In this document: piece after piece, positions 3,961-52,058 of the stretch
Numbering within the stretch: the stretch's first letter is position 1
Layout: the number at the start of each line of letters is the position of its first letter
Source: Paludibacteraceae bacterium
GTDB lineage: Bacteria; Bacteroidota; Bacteroidia; Bacteroidales; Paludibacteraceae
Assembly (NCBI GenBank): GCA_017446455.1
Contig: JAFSQV010000014.1
Location: forward strand, 4,688-68,687
DNA: 64,000 nucleotides
Direction: 5' to 3'
Notes under the pieces: generated by a model
Seen by the model: only the letters and a program-made list of their open reading frames with translations
What the model was told of the DNA's origin: nothing
The model's database searches: none
Made by a program: the position numbers and the translations under genes

Positions 3961-5250
3961 ATGAGAAAGCACTTTATAATCCTCATGACTCTTTACACGC
4001 TCTCCGTTTCGGCGGTGGAGCGTGTTTCGTTAGAGCAGTTACAGGCTGATTGGTCTCGCTATGCCAATCGGATGGTTCAAGTCACGACGCCGCTCGTAGT
4101 ATGCGGTAGTTATTATGACTCTTTGATTCTGGCTCCGGAGCGCTTGTATTGTCCGGAAGAACGCGCGGTGGGTTTGGCGGACGGCGACAGTACGGACTAT
4201 TGGCGCATCCAGGCTTCTAATCGCGCGAACTCGATTTGCGTACATTGTCGTAACACTTATTATAAGGTTCGCACGGGCGATCGTGTGCGCGGGTTTCAAG
4301 CGCGCGTGACAGGTGAGCGGCATTTTGTGACGGGTGCGGGTGTGAAGACTTCGCATGTGCGTGTAACTCCGCTCGCGCGGAAGGAGAAAGATGCAGTGCG
4401 CGTGGTAGGCGCGAATGTGGAGAATCTGTTTGCGGATCTTGGCGGATATGCCACGCGGCGTACGACCCCGAAGCAGAATGCGCTGAAGTTAAGTAAAGTG
4501 GCGAAAGGACTGAAGGCGATGAAGGCGGACCTCTATGCGCTGTGTGAAGTGCAGGTGGGTGATAAAGCGCCGACGATGCTTCTGGAGGCGTTGAACAAAG
4601 GCGGTAAGAAATACGCGTATGTCTCGATGCCGATGGAGAATATGGATCGTATCGGCGGTTGTTTTATCTATCGTACGGACCGCGTGCAACCGTATGAAGC
4701 GCCGCTTTCTGCGTACGCCGATACGAGCAGCCATTACCATGCCCGTATGTTCGCGCAGGGATTTGAATGTCTCGATAAGAAAGGTCAGCCTACGGGCGAA
4801 CGCTTCATTGTCAGTCTGAATCACCTGAAGTCCAAGCGGGCAGGCCGTGGAAACTATGACACGCATCTAAAGAGAATGTCTAATGTGGATTCGCTGTTGG
4901 CGATGCTCCCGCAAGCTGTTGCACTGTATGGCGATTCGGATGTGCTGCTGTTGGGCGATTATAACTGCTATACGCAGGAGTTGCCGATTCAGGCGATTGT
5001 GCGTGCCGGTTATCCGGATCAGTTGATGCGTTTCTGTCCGGATGACTATTCGTATGTATTCCGAGGCGAGATGGGGTATTTGGACCGTTGCTTCGCTTCA
5101 CCGTCCATGGCGACGCAGGTGGTACATGTGCAACCCTGGCACGTCAATACCGATTGGTATTACCAGCATGGCGCGAATAGGTTGAAGGACAAGAGCATGC
5201 ATCGCTACGCGGACCACGAACCAATCATCGTGGATATCAAACTTCAATAA
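3961..5250 (+). CDS. secreted endonuclease/exonuclease/phosphatase (EEP) family protein
   Basis: Start was moved to ATG 3961 because the track start 3931 lies inside the tRNA. Signal peptide MRKHFIILMTLYTLSVSA and C-terminal HRYADHEPIIVDIKLQ (SDHxP-like EEP motif). Confidence 0.7.
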   Translation: MRKHFIILMTLYTLSVSAVERVSLEQLQADWSRYANRMVQVTTPLVVCGSYYDSLILAPERLYCPEERAVGLADGDSTDYWRIQASNRANSICVHCRNTYYKVRTGDRVRGFQARVTGERHFVTGAGVKTSHVRVTPLARKEKDAVRVVGANVENLFADLGGYATRRTTPKQNALKLSKVAKGLKAMKADLYALCEVQVGDKAPTMLLEALNKGGKKYAYVSMPMENMDRIGGCFIYRTDRVQPYEAPLSAYADTSSHYHARMFAQGFECLDKKGQPTGERFIVSLNHLKSKRAGRGNYDTHLKRMSNVDSLLAMLPQAVALYGDSDVLLLGDYNCYTQELPIQAIVRAGYPDQLMRFCPDDYSYVFRGEMGYLDRCFASPSMATQVVHVQPWHVNTDWYYQHGANRLKDKSMHRYADHEPIIVDIKLQ

Positions 5251-5252
5251 GA

Positions 5253-5279
5253 AAAGAGCAGTCATCGAGACTGCTCTTT
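5253..5279 (+). terminator. hairpin terminator after the EEP gene
   Basis: AAAGAGCAGTC-ATCGA-GACTGCTCTTT, an 11-bp stem directly before the att repeats. Confidence 0.6.
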
Positions 5280-5393
5280 CTGTGACCCCGCTGGGCGGGT
5301 TCTACCTTGCACCTGGCGGTGCGAGCTTCTGTGACCCCGCTGGGCGGGTTCTACCTTGCACCTAGCGGTGCGAGCTTCTGTGACCCCGCTGGG
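5278..5393. repeat. tandem array: att core plus 34-bp spacer, 49-bp period, 2 full units and a third core
   Basis: TGTGACCCCGCTGGG occurs at 5281, 5330 and 5379. Units 5281-5329 and 5330-5378 differ at one base (CCTGGCGG versus CCTAGCGG). The spacer contains the GCACC-TGGC-GGTGC mini-hairpin. Confidence 0.9.
5379..5393. repeat. attL core
   Basis: TGTGACCCCGCTGGG is identical to 49207-49221 and is followed by phage DNA. Confidence 0.8.
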
Positions 5394-5434
5394 ACTGCGC
5401 AGATTGTGAGGCCTTATTAGCGCTTGATAGGGAA

Positions 5435-5468
5435 TTTCGGGTGATTTTTCGGGTGAAATTTCGGGTAA
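5435..5468. promoter_or_regulatory. three 12-bp-phased direct repeats TTTCGGGTRA (candidate integrase arm-type sites)
   Basis: TTTCGGGTGA at 5435 and 5447 and TTTCGGGTAA at 5459, between the attL core and the int stop codon. Confidence 0.5.
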
Positions 5469-5527
5469 TAGCCGATTTTCATATTAGCGATTCACAACAC
5501 TTCGCAACAAATCCCGTCAAAATCCCG

Positions 5528-6793
5528 TCATTTTTTCTCTGCCATTCGCTTGAGCACATTCAGTTTCATTTCGTCGTCCACATCCGTGTAACGTGCAAAA
5601 GCGCGCGATCCATCTGCGTGGCCAGTGAAAGATGAAGTGATGCGCTCCGATCCGGTTTCTTTAAATATATGCATCATAAACGTGCGTCTGGCGATGTGCG
5701 AGCTGGCAATCTCCCATAGGTGCTTCGGTTTTGTCTCGAGTGTCTTTGGATCCTGGACCATGATGACGCGATCCATGCCGGCATCCTTCAGTATTTTGTG
5801 AATATCCCGATTGTACACGATGGGGTCGACGAATGGAAGCAAACGCCCATCCGGCTGCCCTTTGTATCTTGATACGATCTCCAAAGCTGTGTCGGAGAGA
5901 GGGACACGCACGACAACCGGGTGACCTTTGCGCGTCTTGCGCGCGATGTACTGCAAGAAGCCATCCTCCGTTACATTGTCCTCACGAAGCTCTATGAGGT
6001 CCGACACACGGCAACCGACGTGGCATTGAAATATAAAGATGTCGCGCTGTGCTGCCATGCTTGGAGAAAGGCCTGAAATCTCATATAAGGCATTGCGCTC
6101 GTCAAGCGTAAGGTACGTCGGTGTTCCATATACCTCGCGTGGAATCTTGTAGCCGCCAAGACCAAACGGGTCCTGCCGCATTTCTCCAATGCGGACGGCT
6201 TCCTTGCATGCGGCGCGGAGCTTCTTCATTCGCGTGACGATAGTATTCCTGCCGCGTATGATTCCGGATTCTCCTTTCTCGTTCATGAGGAACCTGACAA
6301 AAGCGGCTGCATCGTCGGCCGTGAATGTGTCGGTATATAGTTTGCCGTGTTTCTCCTCGAAGCGCTGAATATCGCGCGCAATTACCTCATATATAGCAGC
6401 GGTAGCCGGTTCGAGGTTTTTCTTGTTAGGGTACTCCATAACACATTCGTAGAGCCTGCGCCTGGCTGGTCGCCTGCTCGCATTGATCCCGCGCGCTTCA
6501 TCAATAGTCTGCTGCAGCCATCCGTCGCCGGCATCGTATTGATCCCGCCACCAAGCGTCCAGCACGGTGTTCGTCAGTTCGTCGAGTTCCTGCTGCCTTT
6601 CGCGCAGAGCGACCGCCTCCGGCGTCATTTTGCGAGGTATTGACAAACACCCATCCGCTTCGTTCCAAGCAGCCACAGGCACCGGTATGTGCGTCTTGGC
6701 GCGCTGTGAGAACGTGCCTGCGTAGAAACGCGCAAGCACCTCGGCTTGCCCATTGTACACGCGGGATGATATGCGGAACTTGAGTGTTGGCAT
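5528..6793 (-). CDS. int: tyrosine site-specific integrase
   Basis: C-terminal catalytic pattern ...SHIARRTF...FTGHADGSRAFARYTDV (R..H-x-x-R..H..Y). Start chosen at ATG 6793 (MPTLKFRISS), which overlaps the upstream stop (TGATG). The track ORF extends to a TTG at 6838. Confidence 0.85.
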   Translation of the reverse strand: MPTLKFRISSRVYNGQAEVLARFYAGTFSQRAKTHIPVPVAAWNEADGCLSIPRKMTPEAVALRERQQELDELTNTVLDAWWRDQYDAGDGWLQQTIDEARGINASRRPARRRLYECVMEYPNKKNLEPATAAIYEVIARDIQRFEEKHGKLYTDTFTADDAAAFVRFLMNEKGESGIIRGRNTIVTRMKKLRAACKEAVRIGEMRQDPFGLGGYKIPREVYGTPTYLTLDERNALYEISGLSPSMAAQRDIFIFQCHVGCRVSDLIELREDNVTEDGFLQYIARKTRKGHPVVVRVPLSDTALEIVSRYKGQPDGRLLPFVDPIVYNRDIHKILKDAGMDRVIMVQDPKTLETKPKHLWEIASSHIARRTFMMHIFKETGSERITSSFTGHADGSRAFARYTDVDDEMKLNVLKRMAEKK

Positions 6794-7047
6794 CAGTCCT
6801 TCTTTATAATGAAATCTCCCTCTCCTTTTATGATCCAATCAAGTGAGACACCAAAAACCGTAGAGAGGTAGTAGATATTATCCAAGGAACACGTCATGCG
6901 GCCCTGTTCGATCACAGAGAAATTCTGCGGAAACAGATGCACCCTTGTACAAAATTCACTCTTATTCCTTACGATACCGTCGAGATAAAGCAGTCTGTAT
7001 GCACGAATGAAACGTGCAGCGATCTCGTCTTTGATTTTCCTACCCAT
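6793..7047 (-). CDS. small HTH (XRE-like) DNA-binding protein
   Basis: 84 aa. The pattern ...KSEFCTRVHLFPQNFSVIEQGRMTCSLDNIYYLSTVFGVSLDWII is HTH_3-like. It is translationally coupled to int. Confidence 0.6.
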   Translation of the reverse strand: MGRKIKDEIAARFIRAYRLLYLDGIVRNKSEFCTRVHLFPQNFSVIEQGRMTCSLDNIYYLSTVFGVSLDWIIKGEGDFIIKKD

Positions 7048-7762
7048 TGTTGGTGTCGTTTATCAGTTGTTGACATTTATCTGCAACTGCGTGAGTTGTT
7101 TCTAATGTTTCTTTTGTCTGCTTTGCAGCAGCTTTTCCTTGTGCCTGCGCGTCCGCGACGTGCGCTCGCGTGTATTCCTTATATATATTGATCAGCAAGC
7201 GCCCGTCCTCGGTCATCCAAAAAGGTGACGGCTGGACACCATACGATAAGCAAAGAAGCTGCTGTGTCAGTTTGGAAAGCGATGTGGTCCGTCCGTTATA
7301 AGACACACGTTTATTATCAATAACCGTACAAGTGATGGACGTGTCTTTTTTGAAACGGAGCACGGTGCCAACCGGCAACCCCATAGCAAGGAAGTCCATG
7401 TTCGGTGCTTTTTTACGTTTTGCCTCCTCATCATTGATTTCTTTTTGCACAGCAGTAGTCATGGGCTCAAACTTTCCAATACCTCTCATTAGTTTATCCA
7501 CCGTTTCTGGTGTTACACGAAAAAACTCAGAATTGCCCACACGCTTATCGGAGTAATTATCGTGCAAGATTGCCTCAATGTTCGACAATTCTTCATCTGG
7601 GACTTTATATGCGTATGCACACATGAACGGCTCCGGGACAGCAGTTCCGAGTTCGCGGATTCGATGCCGAATGTCAGTCCTGTGCGTCATTCCGATTTTC
7701 ACCATCCCATTAAAATAGGGATTAGTGAGCACATAAATCAGTCCGTAGTCTTTGCTTTCCAT
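7040..7762 (-). CDS. T5orf172 / GIY-YIG superfamily domain protein with an uncharacterised C-terminal domain
   Basis: The N-terminus GLIYVLTNPYFNGMVKIGMTHRTDIRHRIRELGTAVPEPF...SEFFRV fits the T5orf172 (MUG113) pattern. The C-terminal ~120 aa are not recognisable. Confidence 0.65.
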   Translation of the reverse strand: MESKDYGLIYVLTNPYFNGMVKIGMTHRTDIRHRIRELGTAVPEPFMCAYAYKVPDEELSNIEAILHDNYSDKRVGNSEFFRVTPETVDKLMRGIGKFEPMTTAVQKEINDEEAKRKKAPNMDFLAMGLPVGTVLRFKKDTSITCTVIDNKRVSYNGRTTSLSKLTQQLLCLSYGVQPSPFWMTEDGRLLINIYKEYTRAHVADAQAQGKAAAKQTKETLETTHAVADKCQQLINDTNNG

Positions 7763-7768
7763 AGTTGC

Positions 7769-8002
7769 TTATTTTTGATTAGTGGTTACTTTTTCGTATT
7801 TGTCCGGATATGTCACGATATCAACGATAGAAACTCCGAGAATGTCAGCAATGCGCAGAAGCGTCGAGAGTTTCATATCGTCCGTTTTATTAATACAACG
7901 TGAATATGCTGACTGCAGGATTCCAAGCTTTTCAGCTAACTCTTTTTGACTTAAACCGCGTTCTTTTCGCAGATTTTCCACATTTTTCAAAATATTATTC
8001 AT
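7769..8002 (-). CDS. XRE-family HTH transcriptional regulator (Cro/CI-like)
   Basis: RKERGLSQKELAEKLGILQSAYSRCINKTDDMKLSTLLRIADILGVSIVDIV. A TAATTTTG box (8010-8017, minus strand) lies only ~7 nt upstream of the ATG, so the mRNA may be leaderless. Confidence 0.8.
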   Translation of the reverse strand: MNNILKNVENLRKERGLSQKELAEKLGILQSAYSRCINKTDDMKLSTLLRIADILGVSIVDIVTYPDKYEKVTTNQK

Positions 8003-8056
8003 TTTTTTTCAAAATTACTTGCATATATGACAAAAATGTTATAACTTTGCACCCGA

Positions 8057-8120
8057 ATTGAAAAATTCAAGTTTGCAGACACGGGAGAGTATTGTGAGGT
8101 AACCGCAATACTCTTTTTTT
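8057..8120 (+). ncRNA. candidate small RNA (promoter plus intrinsic terminator, no ORF)
   Basis: TAACTTTG box at 8042-8049, then ~55 nt ending in the AGAGTATTG-TGAGGTAACCG-CAATACTCT hairpin (8086-8114) and a T7 run. It shares AGTTTGCAGACA and GTGAGGTAACC with 45632-45672. Confidence 0.4.
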
Positions 8121-8141
8121 GTCTACAGCCGCCCGCGACCG

Positions 8142-8173
8142 AGGCGCGAGATAGGCGCGAGAGTGGCGCGACC
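8142..8173. repeat. three 11-bp-phased GGCGCGA direct repeats (candidate operator)
   Basis: AGGCGCGAGA at 8142 and 8153 and TGGCGCGACC at 8164, with a related CCGCGACC at 8133. They lie in the intergenic region between two HTH genes. Confidence 0.4.
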
Positions 8174-8242
8174 GTGGCTAATTGACTGAGAGCCGACAGA
8201 GAACCAACAGATACTACTTATAATTGTAAAGTTTCCGAATAG

Positions 8243-8635
8243 TTACCCTGCCAGCACAGAGTCTCGCGGCGCAATAGTATCTCCCCCTTTTAATTCACTG
8301 ATTCGCTCATTAAGTGAATTTATAAGCTCACGTTGCGTTTCTATTGTTTCTTGTTTTGTGGCTATTACATCACGGAGAGAATCAATCAAATCTCGCGCTT
8401 CCGTCTCTTGTAGATCAAGTTTCATGTTGCCATTTCCACGCATAAGCCACTCTGCTGACAAATCTTTATATTGGAATAATATTTCCAACAAGGTGACTGC
8501 AGGGATCGTAGTCTCACCGTTAATATGGTTATTCAACGAGCGAGTTTGCACATTTATTTGCTTGGCCATGGAATTGACACTAAGGCCTTCTTTTTCCATG
8601 AAATAAAGCAGTCTTTTTCTTAGATTTTCTTCCAT
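8243..8635 (-). CDS. HTH plus coiled-coil regulator (candidate prophage repressor)
   Basis: The N-terminal HTH is KEGLSVNSMAKQINVQTRSLNNHINGETTIPAVTLLEILFQY and the C-terminal part is a heptad-rich helix. It is divergent from the early promoter at 8725. Confidence 0.65.
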   Translation of the reverse strand: MEENLRKRLLYFMEKEGLSVNSMAKQINVQTRSLNNHINGETTIPAVTLLEILFQYKDLSAEWLMRGNGNMKLDLQETEARDLIDSLRDVIATKQETIETQRELINSLNERISELKGGDTIAPRDSVLAG

Positions 8636-8724
8636 AAAACTCTCAATTTTTGCCGATTTTCAAAAAAAATGCATTTTTTAGCAAGATTTTTCCAAAATAA
8701 TTTGCGTGTTTGGAAAAATTTTTC

Positions 8725-8732
8725 TACCTTTG
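8725..8732 (+). promoter_or_regulatory. early rightward promoter -7 box (TACCTTTG)
   Basis: TTCTACCTTTGCACTCGC with TTTGCGTG about 20 nt upstream. It is divergent from the repressor-like gene. Confidence 0.55.
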
Positions 8733-8890
8733 CACTCGCAAACGGAAAACAAATGCACCGCAGCCACAAAGAAGAACTAAAAATTGCCGCAAAGGTAATA
8801 AAAAAATACCGAATACGCAAATAAAAACCAATAAAAAATTCAAAAAAAATGAAAGATTAGGATGTATGGACTTAATAGTGACATTCTGTC

Positions 8891-8902
8891 GGGGGGGGGG
8901 GG
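8891..8902. repeat. homopolymeric G12 tract
   Basis: 12 consecutive G residues in the ~235-nt leader between the early promoter and ATG 8969. The tract lies inside a 32-codon sORF (8866-8964). Confidence 0.95.
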
Positions 8903-8968
8903 AGAAGCCCGCCGCATTCAAAAAACAGACATGTAAAAACAATTTATTAACAATTAAAAAATGAAAAT

Positions 8969-9235
8969 ATGGCAAGCGAAAGACAAAACATAGAAGCTTT
9001 ATTGAAAAAAGGAGCCAATATTGCAAATCCTACTCTCAACCCACAAATGAAAGAGAAAGATAAGCTGAAAAAGTTTACTGATTCTGTAAGCAAGTTTATG
9101 ACGGCCGCAGGTTTTCCATGCGGACTCGATTACAGAGGAGCATTCAAAGTTATAGGTAGTAATAAAAACTACATTTACACCGTAGAGGATAAAAACGGCA
9201 AATTAGCTTTTATTTACTCGCACTCTGAATACTAA
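8969..9235 (+). CDS. hypothetical early protein (88 aa)
   Basis: First ORF downstream of the early promoter. No recognisable motif. Confidence 0.5.
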   Translation: MASERQNIEALLKKGANIANPTLNPQMKEKDKLKKFTDSVSKFMTAAGFPCGLDYRGAFKVIGSNKNYIYTVEDKNGKLAFIYSHSEY

Positions 9236-9301
9236 TCATAGGCCATAAGCGGCTGATAGCCGCTTATGGTTGCAATAACCAACAACTAAAACAATATCAT
9301 T

Positions 9302-9553
9302 ATGAGTGTAACAATCGAACAACTGCGCGAACTACGCGCAAGCCTGCCGAAAGGGCAGAAGGACCCATGGGGAGAGTGCTGCATCTCGAAGCGCACACTC
9401 CTGCAGAGGGCATTAAAACGCAACACGCTGGCCGAGCTCACAACCGGCGAGCAAGCGGTAGTACAAGAGTTCATCGTGCATTGCAAGTCGGTGCGTGACG
9501 AGCAGAAGAAACTGGCTGCAGAGATTGATCAACTATCCAATACCGAATTATAA
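9302..9553 (+). CDS. hypothetical early protein (83 aa)
   Basis: Its stop overlaps the next start (TAATG). Confidence 0.55.
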   Translation: MSVTIEQLRELRASLPKGQKDPWGECCISKRTLLQRALKRNTLAELTTGEQAVVQEFIVHCKSVRDEQKKLAAEIDQLSNTEL

Positions 9554-9918
9554 TGAGCACCACCAACCCACTCGAGCAATTAGCCGGCACGCGCAGCGTG
9601 ATCATGATTGACGCTGCCACGCTCCTGGAGTACCTGCACCAAGACCGTGAGGAGACCTACATGGAAGGCATCCGCGAGGGTCGCCGTCTGGCAGAGGCAG
9701 CAGCATTGGCAACGACAGCAGAGCCGCTGACGAAGAAGCAGGCCGCAAAGGCACTCGGATTCTCCGAGGGCACGATTGACAACATGCGACGCCGGGGCGA
9801 GCTGGAGAGCTACGAGTACGGTGGGCAGGTACGGATAGAACGCGCCGAGGTGGAGCGATGGAAACGCACCCACACCGGTCTGTATGCAAAAAGCAAACGT
9901 CTAACCTATAAAAAATGA
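9553..9918 (+). CDS. MerR/excisionase-type HTH protein (candidate Xis or early regulator)
   Basis: LTKKQAAKALGFSEGTIDNMRRRGELESYEYGGQVRIERAEVERWKR fits the HTH_17 pattern. Confidence 0.6.
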   Translation: MSTTNPLEQLAGTRSVIMIDAATLLEYLHQDREETYMEGIREGRRLAEAAALATTAEPLTKKQAAKALGFSEGTIDNMRRRGELESYEYGGQVRIERAEVERWKRTHTGLYAKSKRLTYKK

Positions 9919-43026: not shown

Positions 43027-43669
43027 TGTACTGCTAAATAGACGGAGAGAGATGATGCAAGTAAGCAAGTCTAAGGATAACGTCATCTTATATACGACTA
43101 CTGACGGTAATCCTATCCCAGATAAAACCAACTACGCTTCTGGAGTAAATCTTATTAGCAACACTTATGAGAATGGTGTAGGTACATTGACATTTGACGG
43201 TGTGATTACTACCATTCCGAATAGTGCAGGATTCCATGGTATTACAACTCTTGAATCAGTAGAGTTCCCAGATAGCATCGTGAATTTTGGATACGGTTTG
43301 TTTAATGGTTGTTCGGGGCTTAAATCAGTTAAGTTGCCGCAATACATAACAAGAATCGATACATACACGTTCTATAGTACAGGACTACTTACGCTTGAGA
43401 TACCAGATGGAGTAACGTATATTGGTACATATTGTTTTATGCGTAGTTATAATTTCAAAATATTTGAACTCCCCGCAAGTCTAACGAGCATCGGACGACA
43501 GGCATTCTTAAGCACAGCAATAACGGATATAAAGATTTTGAACACCACTCAAAAGGTAAATGGTGCGGCTTATATGTTTGACAACCCAATAATAAGAGTG
43601 CCGAACGCATTGCTTTCCGAGTATCAAGCAGATAGTAACTGGAATGTGTATAGACTGGCTGGATATTAA
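43019..43669 (+). CDS. BspA-type leucine-rich repeat protein (candidate receptor-binding/adhesion protein)
   Basis: Repeats of the type F.GC..L.S(V/I).(L/I)P..(V/I)..I....F (ESVEFPDSIVNFGYGLFNGCSGLKSVKLPQYITRIDTYTF...). Start chosen at ATG 43019; ATG 43052 is an alternative. Confidence 0.65.
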   Translation: MNDVLLNRRREMMQVSKSKDNVILYTTTDGNPIPDKTNYASGVNLISNTYENGVGTLTFDGVITTIPNSAGFHGITTLESVEFPDSIVNFGYGLFNGCSGLKSVKLPQYITRIDTYTFYSTGLLTLEIPDGVTYIGTYCFMRSYNFKIFELPASLTSIGRQAFLSTAITDIKILNTTQKVNGAAYMFDNPIIRVPNALLSEYQADSNWNVYRLAGY

Positions 43670-43670
43670 A

Positions 43671-44162
43671 ATGTATAACTTCAAGACCTGCATCGTCCTT
43701 CTGCTCTGCGCGTGCTTCGGTGGTTGCAGATGTCCCGAGTGCGTAACGACAACCGAAGTCGAGAAGGTCGTAAAAGTTGTAGAACGTGACACGACCATCG
43801 TGACGAAAGCGGACTCCGCAAGCGTGAGCGCGCTGCTCAAATGCGATAGCGCGTATAACGTAGTGCTCTTTGAACTTGTCAGCATACAAGGCGAGCGTAT
43901 CAAAGCACAGGCGAACACGAAGAAGCAGGGCAAAGACCTTGCGCTTACGCTGAACTGCAAAGAGGACTCGCTGCTGACCGAGATACAACTGCGCGACAGT
44001 ATCATCGCCACCACTACGACCAACACGAAGATCATCCGGGAGAAGTATGTGCCTGGCTATTACAAGTTCGTATCATGGGGCTTTTGGATATTGCTCGCCA
44101 TCCTCATCCTTCTTGGAGCATGGAAGATATTGAAGACATATCTCAAAAAATCAATCATATGA
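43671..44162 (+). CDS. unimolecular spanin-like protein (N-terminal lipobox plus C-terminal TM)
   Basis: MYNFKTCIVLLLCACFGGC (lipobox-like FGGC) and a C-terminal FVSWGFWILLAILILLGAWKIL. Start at ATG 43671. Confidence 0.5.
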   Translation: MYNFKTCIVLLLCACFGGCRCPECVTTTEVEKVVKVVERDTTIVTKADSASVSALLKCDSAYNVVLFELVSIQGERIKAQANTKKQGKDLALTLNCKEDSLLTEIQLRDSIIATTTTNTKIIREKYVPGYYKFVSWGFWILLAILILLGAWKILKTYLKKSII

Positions 44163-44341
44163 AAGAGTTCTGGAAAACTTGGCAATTCTGGACTGCGGTA
44201 GTCTCAGTCATTCTGCTCATCGTAGCGGTAGTGTTGTACTTCGTATCTCCGAAATTCTGCTATGCGGCGAGCGGTCTGCTCATTGGCGCATTCGCAGGCT
44301 TCATCGGCGGGTATTTTGTAGCGAAGAAAGGAGGCTACTGA
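44159..44341 (+). CDS. holin-like protein (60 aa, 2 TM)
   Basis: WQFWTAVVSVILLIVAVVLYFV and AASGLLIGAFAGFIGGYFVA, with a charged C-terminus KKGGY. ATGA overlaps on both sides. Confidence 0.55.
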   Translation: MKEFWKTWQFWTAVVSVILLIVAVVLYFVSPKFCYAASGLLIGAFAGFIGGYFVAKKGGY

Positions 44342-44742
44342 TGAGCCAGATAGAGATTGCATTGCAGATTATTACTACCATCGTCGGACTGATCGGTGGT
44401 GGTGTTGGTATCTATTTCTGGCGTGTCAATCGCGAACTCAAGCAGCAAGAGGTGGAGAAAGCGGCCATTGAAAACGAGATGACACAGGCTGGTGCTTGGC
44501 GCGGACTATACGAGCAGGAACACGCCAAGTGCGAGCAGAAGAGCGCGGAGAAGCGAGAACTCTATGCCGAGCGCGACCGATTGAGAGACGCGAACTCCAA
44601 GAAAGACTTGCGAATCGAGCAGTTGTGTTGGTATTATTGCACACGGCCGAACTGCGACAAGCGTAATCCTCCGCACCGATTTGACGAGCGCGGATACGAG
44701 ATTCACGCAGAGACATTTGATAACAATAAAAAGAAGGAGTGA
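44341..44742 (+). CDS. N-terminal TM plus coiled-coil protein (holin/antiholin or i-spanin-like)
   Basis: IALQIITTIVGLIGGGVGIYFW followed by a charged helical region. Confidence 0.45.
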   Translation: MSQIEIALQIITTIVGLIGGGVGIYFWRVNRELKQQEVEKAAIENEMTQAGAWRGLYEQEHAKCEQKSAEKRELYAERDRLRDANSKKDLRIEQLCWYYCTRPNCDKRNPPHRFDERGYEIHAETFDNNKKKE

Positions 44743-44746
44743 TTGT

Positions 44747-45178
44747 ATGGAGGTTATTTTGCATAGGGCATATAAGAATCCCAATTATACCATAGGCAAA
44801 TTGTATATTGACGGCAAGCCGTGGCGCGACTGCTGCGAGGACCCAGACAGGTGTCTAAACATGTGGATGCCGCTCAAGGACATCGAGGCGAAGAAGGTCT
44901 ATGGCGCCACAGCCATCCCATGCGGCCGTTACGAGATCACACTGACCCACAGCCCAGCATTCGGAAGAGTGCTGCCGCTGCTCAACGGTGTACCCGGATG
45001 GAGCGGCGTGCGGATTCACGCAGGCAACAGCCCCGCCGACTCCAAGGGATGCCTGCTGCCGGGAGATAACAAGGCGGTAGGCAAGGTGCTCAACAGCCGA
45101 GCTGCCGAGAAAGAACTTGTCGCACTCATGCAAGCCGCTCATGCACGAGGCGAGAAAAACTACATCACTATCATATAA
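44747..45178 (+). CDS. candidate endolysin: DUF5675-like protein with a YkuD-like H...GC motif
   Basis: MEVILHRAYKNPNYTIGKLYIDG...IPCGRYEITL...VRIHAGNSPADSKGCLLPG. The His-x10-Gly-Cys spacing resembles the L,D-transpeptidase catalytic motif. It is the last gene of the lysis block. Confidence 0.4.
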   Translation: MEVILHRAYKNPNYTIGKLYIDGKPWRDCCEDPDRCLNMWMPLKDIEAKKVYGATAIPCGRYEITLTHSPAFGRVLPLLNGVPGWSGVRIHAGNSPADSKGCLLPGDNKAVGKVLNSRAAEKELVALMQAAHARGEKNYITII

Positions 45179-45579
45179 TGACCATTAACGAGTTTAGAAA
45201 ACGGCAGGAGAAACGTAACAAAGGAAAGGCTGCAGCCTCGGAGCACGATTTGCAGGTGCAATGCGTGCATATCTTCCGGATGCTATATCCGAATCAATGG
45301 CGACTACTGATGGCTATTCCAAACGGCGGCTACAGAACTGCCACGACAGCGCGTAAGATGCACGCGGAGGGAGTGCAGGCCGGTGTACCGGACATGCTGC
45401 TTGCAGTGGCCCGAAAAGGCTATCACGGCCTTTGGATTGAAATGAAAAACGGCAAGGCAGGAAGAGTTTCCGAGCTCCAGAATGAGATGATCGCCAGACT
45501 GAAAGCAGAAGGCTATGCCTGCGCCGTCTGCCGAACACAAGAAGAATTTATCAACACCATCAAAGAATACATAGATTAA
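45178..45579 (+). CDS. VRR-NUC domain nuclease
   Basis: The PD-(D/E)xK pattern ...GVPDMLLAV...GLWIEMKNGKAG...Q fits the VRR-NUC signature. Confidence 0.7.
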   Translation: MTINEFRKRQEKRNKGKAAASEHDLQVQCVHIFRMLYPNQWRLLMAIPNGGYRTATTARKMHAEGVQAGVPDMLLAVARKGYHGLWIEMKNGKAGRVSELQNEMIARLKAEGYACAVCRTQEEFINTIKEYID

Positions 45580-45591
45580 TCGTAAAATATA

Positions 45592-45730
45592 GGCAGGGTA
45601 CAAAAAAACTCCCTGCCGGCTAAAGTCAAGGAGTTTGCAGACATATTGACTTTAGACAAAGGTGAGGTAACCACCACGACAGAGAGTAATACTCCAAGTT
45701 GTGCGGTTACCTCGCTTATGTTTTATGTCT
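45592..45730 (-). ncRNA. candidate structured small RNA
   Basis: Minus-strand TACCTTTG box (45738-45745), then three hairpins. These are GAGGTAACC...GGTTACCTC (45664-45713), CTAAAGTCAA/TTGACTTTAG (45620-45655) and GGCAGGG/CCCTGCC (45592-45617). No credible ORF is present. Confidence 0.4.
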
Positions 45731-45768
45731 GCGAGTGCAAAGGTACAACAAAAATTTGACATACGCAA

Positions 45769-46080
45769 ATGAAAAGTGAACTTTTTGCAAAAATTCTTGC
45801 TGTTGTGGCTCAAGTTACGGAATTGGAGCCACAAAAAATCCTATCTAAAACAAAGACAGAAGACCTCGTCGCCGCGCGCAGCCTATTCGTACACCAATGC
45901 GTAAGATTCGGAATACCGCCGATATCTATTGCAGAGTTTATGAACCGCAGTAAAACAAAGTGTATCGCAAGGAGCCTTGAAGCATACAACAGCTACTATA
46001 GAACCTCCTATTTATTCCGAGAGATGGACAACATGATCGCAAGTATGGTCCATAAAGATGCCGCATCTATGCCACAATAA
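45769..46080 (+). CDS. DnaA domain IV-like HTH protein
   Basis: ILAVVAQVTELEPQKILSKTKTEDLVAARSLFVHQCVRFGIPPISIAEFMNRSKT resembles the DnaA C-terminal DNA-binding domain. Confidence 0.55.
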   Translation: MKSELFAKILAVVAQVTELEPQKILSKTKTEDLVAARSLFVHQCVRFGIPPISIAEFMNRSKTKCIARSLEAYNSYYRTSYLFREMDNMIASMVHKDAASMPQ

Positions 46081-46126: not shown

Positions 46127-46134
46127 TACCTTTG
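46127..46134 (+). promoter_or_regulatory. promoter -7 box (TACCTTTG) of the right-arm operon
   Basis: GCAGTACCTTTGCACCGTC, 62 nt upstream of ATG 46197. Confidence 0.5.
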
Positions 46135-46196
46135 CACCGTCTTTTGAAAGCGCGCAAAAAGGCACAAAGTGAAACAATCAAATCATTATTACAACT

Positions 46197-47060
46197 ATGG
46201 CAGAAAGTACAACCATTTACACTCCGGACGCAGGTTCGGCAAGTGTAAATAGCATGCTCCCTTGGCTGATGGGTAATCATGGTGGCTTCGGCGGTAACGG
46301 CTGGAGTGACCTGATTGCGCTGTTGGTCGTATGGGGCATCTTCGGCAACAACGGCTTTGGTGGTGGCTTTGGTGGTAACAAAGCAGCTCTGACTGCGATG
46401 GCTACCAATAACCAAGACCTGATTATGCAGGCTGTTGCCGGCAACCGTAGCGCCATCTCTGAGTTGGCAGGAAACCTCAATGTTTCCATCAATGCCGTAC
46501 AGCAGAGTCTCAATGCGCTTGGTCTCGGTATTCAGCAAGTGGGCAACCAAGTTGGTATGTCCGGCTTGCAGGTTATCAACGCTATTCAGTCCGGCAATGC
46601 CGACATCGCTTCCAAACTCGCTTCTTGCTGCTGCGAGACCCGCAACGCGATCACAACCCAAGGCTTCGAGAACCGTCTGGCTACTCTCCAGCAGACAGAC
46701 GCTATCAACGCCAAGATTGCGGAGCAGACCCAGGTTATCAACGACAAGTTCTGTGACCTGGAGAAGCGCGAGATGCAAAGCAAGATTGATGCTCTGGCTC
46801 AACAGAACACCATCCTGCGTGGCACAATCGACAACGCAAACCAGACAGCAGCCATCCAAGGCTACGTGGCGCAAACCGTCGCTCCTGTTGCTGCATCGCT
46901 CAATGAGTTGAGCAAAGAGGTGACAGCCATCAAAGGCTGTATGCCTCAGTCTGTAACCATCCCGTATTCGCCTGTTACAGGTGTTCCGACGGCTGCATTG
47001 GCTTTTGCCGGACTGGGCGCATATGGTTACGGCTATGGAGGTAATGGATTCTTCGGATAA
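46197..47060 (+). CDS. glycine-rich / coiled-coil protein of unknown function (287 aa)
   Basis: N-terminus GGFGGNGWSDLIALLVVWGIFGNNGFGGGFGGN, a central Q/N/A-rich helix with SCCCE, and C-terminus GLGAYGYGYGGNGFFG. Confidence 0.6.
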   Translation: MAESTTIYTPDAGSASVNSMLPWLMGNHGGFGGNGWSDLIALLVVWGIFGNNGFGGGFGGNKAALTAMATNNQDLIMQAVAGNRSAISELAGNLNVSINAVQQSLNALGLGIQQVGNQVGMSGLQVINAIQSGNADIASKLASCCCETRNAITTQGFENRLATLQQTDAINAKIAEQTQVINDKFCDLEKREMQSKIDALAQQNTILRGTIDNANQTAAIQGYVAQTVAPVAASLNELSKEVTAIKGCMPQSVTIPYSPVTGVPTAALAFAGLGAYGYGYGGNGFFG

Positions 47061-47078
47061 TGAAGAAAGGAGGGCACT

Positions 47079-47423
47079 ATGTGGGACTTCTTTAATTTCA
47101 TACCGATGCTCCTCGTGAATCGTCGCGGTTCCTTGTTGCTGCCAACTACCGGTCTTTCCGTTAGTGCAACTGCCGCGACATTCACCCTCCCGTCGTACCG
47201 CGTATGTGGTCCTCGCGGCACCATGCTCATCAAGATTTCACAAGCGTTCCCGGACGGTGCCACCGCCACACTGCCTATTGTGTTCACTGCTAACGGTGGT
47301 ACGCAGGCGGCAACAAAAGTCGGTGGTGATCCGTTGACGATTGCTGACATCCCGGGCACGGGTGTTTACGAGTTCTACTACGACCGCGAAAGCAGCACCT
47401 TGCAACTGCTTGGAGCTGCATAA
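47079..47423 (+). CDS. hypothetical protein (114 aa)
   Basis: Same operon. Beta-rich composition. Confidence 0.5.
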   Translation: MWDFFNFIPMLLVNRRGSLLLPTTGLSVSATAATFTLPSYRVCGPRGTMLIKISQAFPDGATATLPIVFTANGGTQAATKVGGDPLTIADIPGTGVYEFYYDRESSTLQLLGAA

Positions 47424-47469
47424 ACGGCGAAAGAGCAAATCAAGTTAAATCAACTAAAAGTCAAACAAC

Positions 47470-47982
47470 ATGTTCAGTACACTTCGTAAGGGCACGCTCG
47501 TTTATGTGCTCAAGAAAGACGGCAAACCATCAGTAGACATATGTGAAGTTGCCGAGGTCACGCCTCCAGCATTCACAGCAGGCGCTACTACATTCCAACC
47601 AGGCTTCCCATTGCAGCAGCGGACAACCGTTGATGCAAAAGTCAAATCCGGTGACCAGGTGCTCGAATTCAAGCAGCTGCCATCCGATGCAACTATCTTC
47701 AGCTACAACGGCCAGACGGTCGTTGCTGACAACAAAGACGACATCCTTCGCGAGATTGAATCTATGCGAAATATCAGTGCAGAGGCACTTGCCTCTGTTG
47801 ATAAGCACAAGGAGATCGTGAGTTGCTGTGATGAGATCATTGCAAAACTCAACCCTCAAGTCCGTAGTGCTGCAGAAAACACAAGGGCTATGGAAAAGCT
47901 CAACGGCAGAGTGGACGGTTTGGAAAAGTCCATCGGGGACCTAAAAGGCATGCTCTCCGAGGTGCTGAAACAAAGAAAGTAG
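47470..47982 (+). CDS. hypothetical protein (170 aa)
   Basis: Same operon. The C-terminus is coiled coil. Confidence 0.5.
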   Translation: MFSTLRKGTLVYVLKKDGKPSVDICEVAEVTPPAFTAGATTFQPGFPLQQRTTVDAKVKSGDQVLEFKQLPSDATIFSYNGQTVVADNKDDILREIESMRNISAEALASVDKHKEIVSCCDEIIAKLNPQVRSAAENTRAMEKLNGRVDGLEKSIGDLKGMLSEVLKQRK

Positions 47983-47994
47983 GAGGACACCGCA

Positions 47995-48252
47995 ATGGGA
48001 CTTTTTATTATCAGCAAAAAAGACGGCTCAAGCGTTGACGAACTGCGCGAGTTCAAACACAAAGTCAAGACCGCAAAGAAGCTCATGGAAGAGATTTGCG
48101 AAGATGTCGAATCCATGGAGGCTGAGTACGGAGGAGACTACAGCGAGCGCAGTCGGTACCGCGAGCACTGGGACGATCGCGATCGTGAACGCGAACGCTA
48201 TCGCGACGAGATGGAACGTGACCGCTACCTTAGTGAGCGTAGACGTTACTAA
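47995..48252 (+). CDS. hypothetical protein with an RD/RE-rich tail (85 aa)
   Basis: The C-terminus reads RSRYREHWDDRDRERERYRDEMERDRYLSERRRY. Confidence 0.45.
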   Translation: MGLFIISKKDGSSVDELREFKHKVKTAKKLMEEICEDVESMEAEYGGDYSERSRYREHWDDRDRERERYRDEMERDRYLSERRRY

Positions 48253-48302
48253 TCAGTAACCCGGGCAGGGGACTAATGTTCTCTGCCCTTAATTTTGAAA
48301 TT

Positions 48303-48704
48303 ATGAATAAGACAATATATGAAGATATGCCGCGCGAAATGCGTGCATACCTAAGCAACTACGGTTGGCATTTCAATAAGGCTCTGCAGGAATGGGCAGC
48401 GTCACATATGCGCGACAAATCCGGCAATCCAATCAAAGCGTACACAAAGGAATCGCTCGATGCTCTCCTTAAAGCTTATGCTGTCGATTTGAAAACTGAC
48501 CACATATACGATGCGCTGTATGTGGCTAATATGTGCAGGGCCGATTTCTACGGATCGTCTGTTGCCGACGAGGCGCATCTGGTCAAGTACGTGGCCGATT
48601 ACGTGAATGATCCGGACGGATATGAAGGCATGCCGTTTGTGCGGTTCTACGCAGACACTTGCATGAAGAACGACTGCACAATCTACTGGGAAGATTTCAT
48701 ATGA
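48303..48704 (+). CDS. hypothetical protein (133 aa)
   Basis: Start moved to ATG 48303, after the GGGCAG...CTGCCC hairpin. Confidence 0.5.
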   Translation: MNKTIYEDMPREMRAYLSNYGWHFNKALQEWAASHMRDKSGNPIKAYTKESLDALLKAYAVDLKTDHIYDALYVANMCRADFYGSSVADEAHLVKYVADYVNDPDGYEGMPFVRFYADTCMKNDCTIYWEDFI

Positions 48705-49120
48705 TCCGGCAGACGATAAATATCGAGCAGTACGGGTGGGATGCTTACGTTTATATGGCAGCCACACCAGCAGACGCACCGGAGATTATAGGCGTACTGG
48801 AAAGTATAGGTATCAGCGCTGCGCAATTTATGAAAGCAGAGAGACATCTTCAGAGTGCTGTTCGTGATAGCGGAATGACATACTCTTCCGGAAGAACGCG
48901 CGAGAGCGTAGTCGTTATCTCCAGGAGTACATCGCCAGAAGAAACAATCAACACATTTTCACACGAACTGCGCCACCTGGCCGACGATATTGCAGAGGCA
49001 CTCAACATCCCGCATCGCGGAGAGGAAGTTGCATACCTTACTGGAGATATCGCGTGTGCGCTTGCGGGTTCATTACTGCATATCGCTTGCGAATGTCCAA
49101 AGTGCCGAAATGCCGGATAA
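48701..49120 (+). CDS. HExxH zinc-metallopeptidase-like protein (139 aa)
   Basis: FSHELRHLADD plus a C-terminal CECPKCRN. ATGA overlap with the upstream gene. It is the last prophage gene. Confidence 0.5.
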   Translation: MIRQTINIEQYGWDAYVYMAATPADAPEIIGVLESIGISAAQFMKAERHLQSAVRDSGMTYSSGRTRESVVVISRSTSPEETINTFSHELRHLADDIAEALNIPHRGEEVAYLTGDIACALAGSLLHIACECPKCRNAG

Positions 49121-49160
49121 ATAGCGAATTTTCGTCAAAATCTCGTCAATTTAAAAATAA

Positions 49161-49205
49161 AAAAGAACGTAAAATGCTAATACACAGCACGATACGTTCT
49201 TTTTT
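49161..49205 (+). terminator. rho-independent terminator at the prophage right end
   Basis: AAAAGAACGTA...TACGTTCTTTT stem followed by a T-run, directly before attR. Confidence 0.6.
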
Positions 49206-49206
49206 A

Positions 49207-49221
49207 TGTGACCCCGCTGGG
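49207..49221. repeat. attR core (identical to the 3' end of tRNA-Arg)
   Basis: TGTGACCCCGCTGGG is identical to 5281, 5330 and 5379. Confidence 0.85.
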
Positions 49222-49282
49222 GCTCAAACCCAGAACCTTCAGAACCGGAATCTGACACTCTATTCAATTGAGCTACGGGGCC
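49209..49282 (-). tRNA. tRNA-Arg (CCG)
   Basis: Minus strand reads GGCCCCG TA GCTC AATTGAATA GAGT G TCAGA TTCCGGT TCTGA AGGTT CTGGG TTTGAGC CCCAG CGGGGTC A. 74 nt. Confidence 0.85.
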
Positions 49283-51582: not shown

Positions 51583-51586
51583 TAAG

Positions 51587-51659
51587 TGGAGCATAGGGGA
51601 GTCGAACCCCTGACCTCAACATTGCGAACGTTGCGCTCTACCAACTGAGCTAATACCCC
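51587..51659 (-). tRNA. tRNA-Ala (CGC)
   Basis: Minus strand reads GGGGTAT TA GCTC AGTTGGTA GAGC G CAACG TTCGCAA TGTTG AGGTC AGGGG TTCGACT CCCCT ATGCTCC A. The G3:U70 identity pair is present. Confidence 0.85.
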
Positions 51660-51665
51660 TTTTTG

Positions 51666-52058
51666 TGGAGCTAGCGGGAGTCGAACCCGCGTCCAAACAA
51701 GGAACAATTCCGCTTTCTACACGCTTATCTTGGCCTTCGTTTTCGTCCGGTAGCAAGACCCAAGCCACCAACTACCGGCTTATCTGCTAAGTTCTCGATA
51801 CCGCATCGCAGCCTGCGATATCTATTCTGTGAATTCCCGCACCGCTATATCCTTTCAGCCCACAGACTCGGCTTGGAGCGATGTCTCGTTCAGGCGCCTT
51901 GCGCCCGAAGAAAGCTAATCTACTATACTTCGATTAGGCAGCGAGAGCATACTCATAGTTGTTGCCAGTTATGTGTCGAAGCGAGATTTACGAGCGTTGC
52001 CTCATTGCTCGGCGTGCTTACACAACCATTCTACCTGCTGTCAAAACCAAATAGCCCC
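51666..52058 (-). ncRNA. ssrA: tmRNA
   Basis: The 5' end GGGGCTATTTGGTTTTGACAGC pairs with the 3' end TAGCTCCA (G3:U70), and the T-arm is GCGGG-TTCGACT-CCCGC. The internal tag reading frame GGC AAC AAC TAT GAG TAT GCT CTC GCT GCC TAA encodes GNNYEYALAA. Confidence 0.85.

Follow-up and report, generated by a model that had tools for sequence, protein, structure and literature searches.

A widespread, regulated accessory gene cassette of Bacteroidales phages at the attR end of a Paludibacteraceae prophage, with a possible role at the cell envelope

The sequence analyzed was a stretch of 64,000 nucleotides from a Paludibacteraceae bacterium (GenBank assembly GCA_017446455.1, contig JAFSQV010000014.1, positions 4,688 to 68,687 of the forward strand), referred to here as the window and numbered from its first nucleotide. 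The window is a segment of a Bacteroidales chromosome carrying a prophage of ~44 kb, and close to the right attachment site (attR) of this prophage six genes, designated g1 to g6, span positions 46197-49120. The block exemplifies an accessory cassette that is widespread among phages infecting Bacteroidales and is exchanged horizontally among them, and it carries its own regulatory signals and a conserved catalytic motif.

Organization, regulation and distribution of the cassette

All six genes lie on the plus strand and are tightly packed, as a preliminary description made from the sequence alone had stated. The first gene, g1 (46197-47060), encodes a protein of 287 aa containing GGFGGNGW, GNNGFGGGFGGN, a CCC triplet and GYGYGGNGFFG, and is followed by g2 (47079-47423; 114 aa, β-rich), g3 (47470-47982; 170 aa, a small β-barrel with two long helices), g4 (47995-48252; 85 aa, with an RDRERERYRDEMERDRY tract), g5 (48303-48704; 133 aa, acidic, Pfam family DUF7841) and g6 (48701-49120; 139 aa, with HELRH and CECPKC). 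The motifs quoted in the preliminary description, namely the Gly/aromatic-rich termini and CCC triplet of g1, the tract of g4, and the HELRH and Cys tail of g6, were all found. The intergenic gaps are 18, 46, 12 and 50 nt, followed by a 4-nt ATGA overlap through which g6 is translationally coupled to g5. The start of g5 was assigned to 48303 because the alternative, longer start at 48276 lies inside a hairpin.

The promoter claimed for the block was confirmed as a Bacteroidota-type −7 box, TACCTTTG, on the plus strand at 46127-46134, 63 nt before the g1 ATG. Eight copies of this sequence occur in the window against 1.46 expected, and one of these stands directly before tRNA-Met. Of 29 dereplicated loci, 17 have a TAnnTTTG box ahead of g1, at a distance of 30-70 nt, compared to 9% of background 150-nt windows. 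At ~7 nt after the box, a palindrome (scored only if perfect and with arms of at least 4 nt) was observed in 11 of 16 loci, compared to 13% of control boxes, with TGTAAGCTTACA, TGTAACGTTACA, TGTTGATCAACA and AAGTTGCAACTT as examples from cassette promoters; in the window, the inverted repeat following the box at this position is imperfect. In loci L003, L023, L075, L078, L013, L006, L017 and L036, the palindromes, which precede g1 by ~50-70 nt, belong to one family, TGT(A/T)A..T(T/A)ACA. Its variants differ among loci and may covary with the type of helix-turn-helix (HTH) gene upstream, DnaA_C-like or HTH_17. In the window this gene (45769-46080, plus strand) encodes a small HTH protein of 103 aa that resembles DnaA domain IV (Pfam Bac_DnaA_C, E = 2.5e-5). 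In ~40 of 80 loci from IMG/VR and ~20 of 60 loci from genome collections, the gene immediately preceding g1 was Bac_DnaA_C-like and had the same orientation as g1; in other loci this slot was occupied by an HTH_17 gene, and a small HTH gene of one of these types is the usual upstream neighbor. The upstream small HTH protein is probably the regulator of the cassette.

Two hairpins were assigned within and behind the block. The terminal hairpin (49157-49207; −22.4 kcal/mol, z = −4.87) stops where the att core and tRNA-Arg start, in agreement with the strong terminator described earlier at attR. Its A6/U6 flanks indicate a terminator on both strands, which ends the operon as well as the minus-strand tRNA-Arg, the latter being the tRNA gene that is reconstituted by the phage end. 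The block had also been called self-contained, and it does have its own promoter and terminator. A second strong hairpin with a GC-rich stem and a T-rich tail (48263-48288, plus strand; −21.9 kcal/mol, z = −4.75) divides g1-g4 from g5-g6. It is proposed to be an attenuator or terminator between g4 and g5. Of 51 loci, 14 had a comparable hairpin between g4 and g5 and none had one between g3 and g4, although the scanned lengths differ and these counts are indicative only. In the window the hairpin is directly followed by a −7-like box, TAATTTTG (48290-48297, plus strand), which lies 6 nt ahead of the g5 start codon and could be an internal promoter yielding a near-leaderless g5-g6 transcript.

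Conservation of the six-gene block was checked, and the same gene order recurs in many gut Bacteroidales phages that are unrelated to one another. The order g1, g2, g3, a small charged g4, g5 and g6 was found in Bacteroides phage C3_41T2LP and in the crAss-like phages cr272_1 (Suoliviridae), cr116_1 (Steigviridae) and csAssE-Sib. In C3_41T2LP, a cultured phage of Bacteroides uniformis, all six genes follow genes for a Holliday-junction resolvase, a DnaA-like HTH protein and an HNH protein. A rearranged order (g5-like, g1, g2, g3-like) was observed in cr53_1 and cr4_1. From at least 550 confirmed g1 relatives in IMG/VR, 80 loci on contigs of 23-172 kb were examined; g1, g2, g3 and g5 occurred in this order in ~70 of them, and g6 as well in ~60. 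In the independent genome-collection set, all five detectable genes were in order in 38 of 60 loci. Genes at these loci were called as crude open reading frames (ORFs), and TAG recoding in some loci splits ORFs. In the six genes checked in cr272_1 (4219-9660), comprising the cassette and neighbors, 10 in-frame TAG codons were observed and no in-frame TAA or TGA, a pattern that agrees with the reassignment of TAG that has been reported in certain crAss-like phages. The pairwise identities of the five detectable genes fall in step across loci, with g1 the most conserved, from which it is deduced that the cassette evolves as a unit.

The accessory status of the cassette was deduced from crAss-like phages. 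In cr116_1 it sits between orthologs of crAss001 gp30 (45% identity) and gp31 (47% identity), whereas crAss001 itself has only a 235-nt gap between these two genes, with no homolog of the cassette detected elsewhere in its first 45 kb. The cassette is thus present in cr116_1 exactly where crAss001 lacks one. Among 300 other genomes of the host's order, g1 was found in one. A search of 185,579 species genomes yielded 57 loci, including those of Alistipes putredinis DSM 17216, Bacteroides gallinarum DSM 18171 and Parabacteroides species, and in these isolate assemblies the cassette presumably sits in prophages. Many other cassette contigs, of 88-185 kb (among loci L100-L152), were binned under Clostridia, Bacilli, Bifidobacteriaceae, Rickettsiales and other groups; they look like complete phage genomes mis-binned in unrelated metagenome-assembled genomes. 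The cassette is likewise next to the integrase in a second temperate phage (L092), whose portal is of the P22 type. No account of the cassette was found when the literature was searched for DUF7841, for the names of the phages and for descriptive terms. It is concluded that the cassette belongs to no described system; its novelty is by exclusion, the sequences being already deposited as hypothetical proteins, PHROGs and one DUF.

The cassette products

The six products had been described as ORFans, and this description was revised. Matches to PHROG families, all without an assigned function, were obtained for g1 (phrog_16490, E = 3.9e-39), g2 (phrog_31654, E = 4e-13), g3 (phrog_28898, E = 4.6e-19) and g5 (phrog_38431, E = 1.7e-38) and, weakly, for g6 (E = 8.5e-5), and g5 additionally belongs to Pfam DUF7841. 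The related claim that none of the products matches a known structural or defense family was upheld by PADLOC, NCBIfam, PDB sequence profiles and Foldseek. When all six products were searched against PADLOC, NCBIfam and Pfam, DUF7841 was the sole significant match. Profile searches of the PDB with g1, g5 and g6 gave nothing below E = 0.02, and the best matches among the defense models of PADLOC-DB v2 were ZorA (E = 0.0056, coiled coil only) and RmrA (E = 0.0099), neither of them significant.

The g1 family comprises more than 5,646 homologous clusters in a large protein collection, none of which is named or has a Pfam domain. In g1 a short hydrophobic helix, LIALLVVWGIF, is embedded in Gly/Trp/Phe-rich sequence, the family alignments show many invariant polar residues and the CCC motif in the helical region, and the family mean is 7.2 Cys. 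The C terminus carries a PxTVxxPYSP motif and then a Gly/Tyr/Phe tail closing in FWG, YWG or FFG. An AlphaFold2 model built from 78 sequences contained a helix at residues 37-49 and a single helix of ~19 nm at residues 123-248, but its mean predicted local distance difference test (pLDDT) score of 57.6 was low and insufficient for a search by fold. A Gly/aromatic-rich head and tail around a long α-helical rod is the architecture of intermediate filaments and keratins, and g1, with its Gly/aromatic-rich ends flanking a helical rod, is similarly built. This is a resemblance only; the hydrophobic helix in the head of g1 is a difference, and we know of no bacterial or phage context for a keratin-like architecture.

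The g1 protein was also compared to single-pass membrane lysis proteins that have a large Cys-containing domain past the membrane, namely Rz-type inner-membrane spanins (i-spanins) and the T4 holin T. Common to these and g1 are an N-terminal hydrophobic helix, a long helical or coiled-coil domain, conserved cysteines and, often, a location near holin, endolysin or spanin genes. However, no similarity is seen at the sequence level, g1 is roughly twice as long as Rz and has no embedded or adjacent lipoprotein partner, Gly/aromatic-rich termini are not a feature of these proteins, and the prophage has separate candidates resembling a unimolecular spanin (u-spanin) and Rz. An assignment of g1 as a spanin or holin was rejected because the defining features are missing, no lipobox gene being found in g1-g6 or in overlapping frames. 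An assignment as ZorA of the Zorya system was likewise rejected, since g1 has a single hydrophobic helix rather than a multipass channel of the MotA/ExbB type and its match covers only the tail region of the ZorA model (positions 446-589 of 700). A shorter g1-like protein of 226 aa, with CCCETKG, a Gly-zipper-like N terminus and no Gly/Tyr tail, was observed in Parabacteroides phage PD691P6 (L091, 2281-5959), where a 62-aa ORF, g3 and a 212-aa g5 come after it, with holin-like, endolysin and spanin-like genes next in line. Bacteroides phage BF503P2 (L090, 3872-6525) has g5 alone, ahead of the same type of holin.

No signal peptide was evident in g2-g6 when their sequences were read directly. 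Of the two products said to be β-rich, g2 conformed: its alignment is β-rich with a variable central loop. It is homologous to gp51 of cr272_1 (5e-23) and follows g1 in 82 loci. The other, g3, departed from the description in that its AlphaFold2 model (pLDDT 84.5) places a small β-barrel at the N terminus and two long helices at the C terminus. The g3 model had no match better than E = 0.2 in the PDB by Foldseek, and only uncharacterized crAss-like proteins matched it in BFVD; a word-indexed search for g3 homologs returned only five close relatives. In g4, 53% of the residues are charged; the protein has an Arg/Asp/Glu/Tyr tract, and its C terminus is basic. In most loci examined, the gap between g3 and g5 contained a counterpart ORF of 50-125 aa with 40-70% charged residues and a basic end of the form ...ERRG(R/V)...R(Y/R).

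The assignment of g5 to DUF7841 (PF25223) is supported by an E value of 3.1e-27 and a score of 95.5 bits against a cutoff of 25.2, with profile positions 1-113 of 114 covered. An exhaustive g5 profile search for domain fusions found 1,055 representative clusters, and all 150 that were listed were short stand-alone proteins. For g6, a profile search returned 179 unnamed proteins. Residues H88, E89, H92, G107, E108 and Y112 were invariant in 17 diverse homologs (27-38% identity), as expected for a zincin, and the Pfam matches of g6, none of which reached its threshold, were all to zincin families (DUF6782, SprT-like, M76, MPTase-PolyVal and M78). The catalytic motif is thus conserved, and g6 is regarded as a mini zincin-like protein, judging by this motif.

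The relationship of g6 to the small zincins of mobile elements (MPTase-PolyVal PF18818, DUF6782, ImmA/IrrE of M78, and SprT-like) is one of partial likeness. Shared features are the invariant HExxH, the GE 14 residues on and the conserved Tyr; g6 is also small, carried by a phage and linked to its partner gene by translational coupling, in the manner of ImmA and ImmR. In contrast, g6 scores below the Pfam thresholds (best 16 bits versus 27), its Cys-rich tail is foreign to those families, and its partner g5 has no recognizable HTH. Membership of g6 in DUF6782 (16 bits versus 27), M78 (12.9 versus 22) or MPTase-PolyVal (E = 0.045, in 1 of 17 members) was rejected on these scores, as was an ImmA/ImmR-type pairing of g5 and g6, because g5 matches DUF7841 only and no HTH family in the Pfam, NCBIfam or PDB profiles.

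Proposed function and alternatives

We tentatively propose that the cassette encodes a cell-associated envelope complex acting either in superinfection exclusion or in the control of lysis or egress. This reading fits best with the presence of the cassette in both virulent and temperate phages, whose architectures are unrelated, near lysis genes or near attP and the integrase. Holin, endolysin or spanin genes are neighbors of the cassette, or of its g5 or g1-like genes, in the window, cr272_1, cr116_1, cr53_1, cr4_1, PD691P6 and BF503P2. The proposed anatomy consists of the HTH gene, a promoter for the host RNA polymerase, usually with a palindromic operator, g1-g4, an attenuating hairpin, and the coupled g5-g6 pair. 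On this model g1 would insert in the cytoplasmic membrane through its Gly/Trp-flanked short hydrophobic helix and would oligomerize via the helical rod. The g2, g3 and charged g4 proteins, which have no signal peptides, would be made in similar amounts and assemble on g1. Lower levels are envisaged for g5 and the mini-zincin g6, which would together have a catalytic or regulatory task, such as the cleavage of a host protein or other host target or of one part of the complex. The assembly would be active at the cell envelope during phage development, excluding superinfecting phages or modulating lysis or egress, rather than conferring a trait on the lysogen. A more elaborate version, which we regard as somewhat doubtful, is that the cassette, present in several Crassvirales families, specifies an undescribed multiprotein envelope machine of gut Bacteroidales phages for exclusion, lysis control or egress, in which a membrane-anchored, keratin-like g1 has three small partners, is under the control of DUF7841 and the mini-zincin, and is switched by the HTH protein and its operator.

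Several observations weigh against an envelope complex. The flanks of the cassette were heterogeneous in Pfam and PHROG censuses of 28 dereplicated loci, with genes for diversity-generating retroelement (DGR) reverse transcriptase, anti-repressor, HNH protein, crass capsid, PhoH, repressor and integrase, so that the association with lysis genes is anecdotal rather than general. The topology of g1 is undecided, as K/R is equal on the two sides of the hydrophobic helix (1.26 versus 1.12) and the AlphaFold2 model is of low confidence. No homology to characterized exclusion, lysis or envelope proteins was found with PADLOC, NCBIfam, PDB profiles or Foldseek, and candidate holin-, u-spanin- and Rz-like genes are already available upstream in the prophage.

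Exclusion of superinfecting phages, one of the roles named in the preliminary description, is a possible role of the cassette. Like the superinfection-exclusion proteins T4 Imm and Sp, P22 SieA and HK97 gp15, its products are phage-encoded, accessory and patchy, with a membrane location that for g1 is predicted, and in temperate phages the cassette is at the lysogeny end with its own promoter. Unlike the cassette, these systems consist of one or two genes rather than six coevolving genes that include a putative peptidase, and no homology was found.

An alternative that we consider unlikely is a virion accessory set, in which g1-g3 are fiber, decoration or ejection proteins and g4-g6 are assembly or processing factors; g1, a coiled coil with hydrophobic Gly-rich ends, could then be a membrane-active ejected protein. 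In crAss-like phages the cassette does lie in the late region amid tail, lysis and capsid genes. Its g2 has a variable loop, g1 weakly matches reovirus sigma-1 (E = 0.033) and virion-protein PHROGs by its coiled coil, and depositors have used the label "viral fiber/spike." Furthermore, the crAss001 head fibers gp21 and gp29 are also accessory, patchy and exchangeable products of small late genes (PMC10172136), and the locus of gp29, amid lysis genes, is the one that holds the cassette in relatives. However, hhalign comparison of five cassette profiles to 20 crAss001 proteins from gp2-gp40, including gp21 and gp29, gave no match above 20% probability, and the membrane-type hydrophobic helix of g1 is a further difference from these fibers. 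The same cassette occurs across unrelated virion types with genomes of 23-172 kb, which is hard to reconcile with specific docking to a capsid or tail. It is preceded by recombination and regulatory genes rather than structural genes in C3_41T2LP, csAssE-Sib and the window prophage, and an operator-controlled promoter with its own HTH gene is unusual for structural genes.

A conflict module, serving multiprotein counter-defense or inter-phage competition with the zincin as effector and g1 as a membrane-anchored sensor or scaffold, is similarly improbable. This would account for a patchy, horizontally transferred cassette in variable regions near anti-repressors, DGRs, HNH genes and, once, a Tad2-like gene. 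Small zincins of the PolyVal, ImmA and Rosmer types do occur in conflict systems, and the weak matches of the cassette to MPTase-PolyVal, RmrA and the coiled coil of the ZorA tail point in the same direction. These matches, however, fall far short of the thresholds for family membership, and they are accounted for by the HExxH motif or a coiled-coil composition. Known anti-defense genes are mostly single and small rather than six-gene coevolving operons, and the cassette lacks a nuclease, an NTPase or any other typical effector.

The view taken in the preliminary description, that the block is lysogenic-conversion or host-defense cargo expressed by the prophage to the benefit of the lysogen, was correct as to an autonomous accessory unit at the att end, independent of the late operon through its own host-type promoter and terminator as a moron would be and integrase-adjacent likewise in L092, but a lysogen-specific role of either kind is very unlikely, because the carriers are chiefly free phage genomes, including Crassvirales with no integrase nearby, rather than the temperate phages and prophages expected for a moron, and because the cassette is rare in the host's order, PADLOC was negative and the genes coevolve as a phage unit.

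Whether the cassette forms an envelope complex or not, it is large (six coevolving genes plus a regulator), very common, and crosses phage families and lifestyles. Most accessory genes of crAss-like and other Bacteroidales phages are without an assigned function, although these phages are dominant in the human gut virome. Being common and regulated and having a conserved catalytic site, the cassette is a well-defined target. Phage C3_41T2LP, A. putredinis DSM 17216, B. gallinarum DSM 18171 and the Parabacteroides assemblies are carriers that might be used as laboratory systems, and the function of the cassette could reveal a new step in phage handling of the Bacteroides envelope or in inter-phage competition.

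Prophage setting

The attR core, TGTGACCCCGCTGGG (49207-49221), is the 3′ end of tRNA-Arg(CCG), which occupies 49208-49282 on the minus strand. At attL the same core occurs three times on the plus strand (5281-5295, 5330-5344 and 5379-5393) within an array at 5278-5393. The first two cores are inside full 49-bp tandem repeat units that are 98% identical, and the third copy is a bare core; outside the core, the 49-bp unit has no match to the tRNA. The array may represent scars of past integrations or a secondary att site set. A tyrosine integrase gene (5528-6838, minus strand) adjoins attL. Genes for the large terminase subunit (TerL), the portal and a MuF/protease-like head protein are located at 22.5-36 kb, and the lysis group at 43.6-45.2 kb. 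Upstream of the cassette, 43644-44742 encodes a u-spanin-like protein with a lipobox and a transmembrane segment, as well as an Rz-like protein. The lysis group precedes a VRR-NUC nuclease gene (45178-45579), which lies between it and the HTH gene. An extra TACCTTTG box on the minus strand (45738-45745) points left into the ORF-free interval between the VRR-NUC and HTH genes (45580-45768). Beyond the prophage, downstream of attR, genes for tRNA-Ala and a transfer-messenger RNA with the tag GNNYEYALAA were found at 51586-52058.

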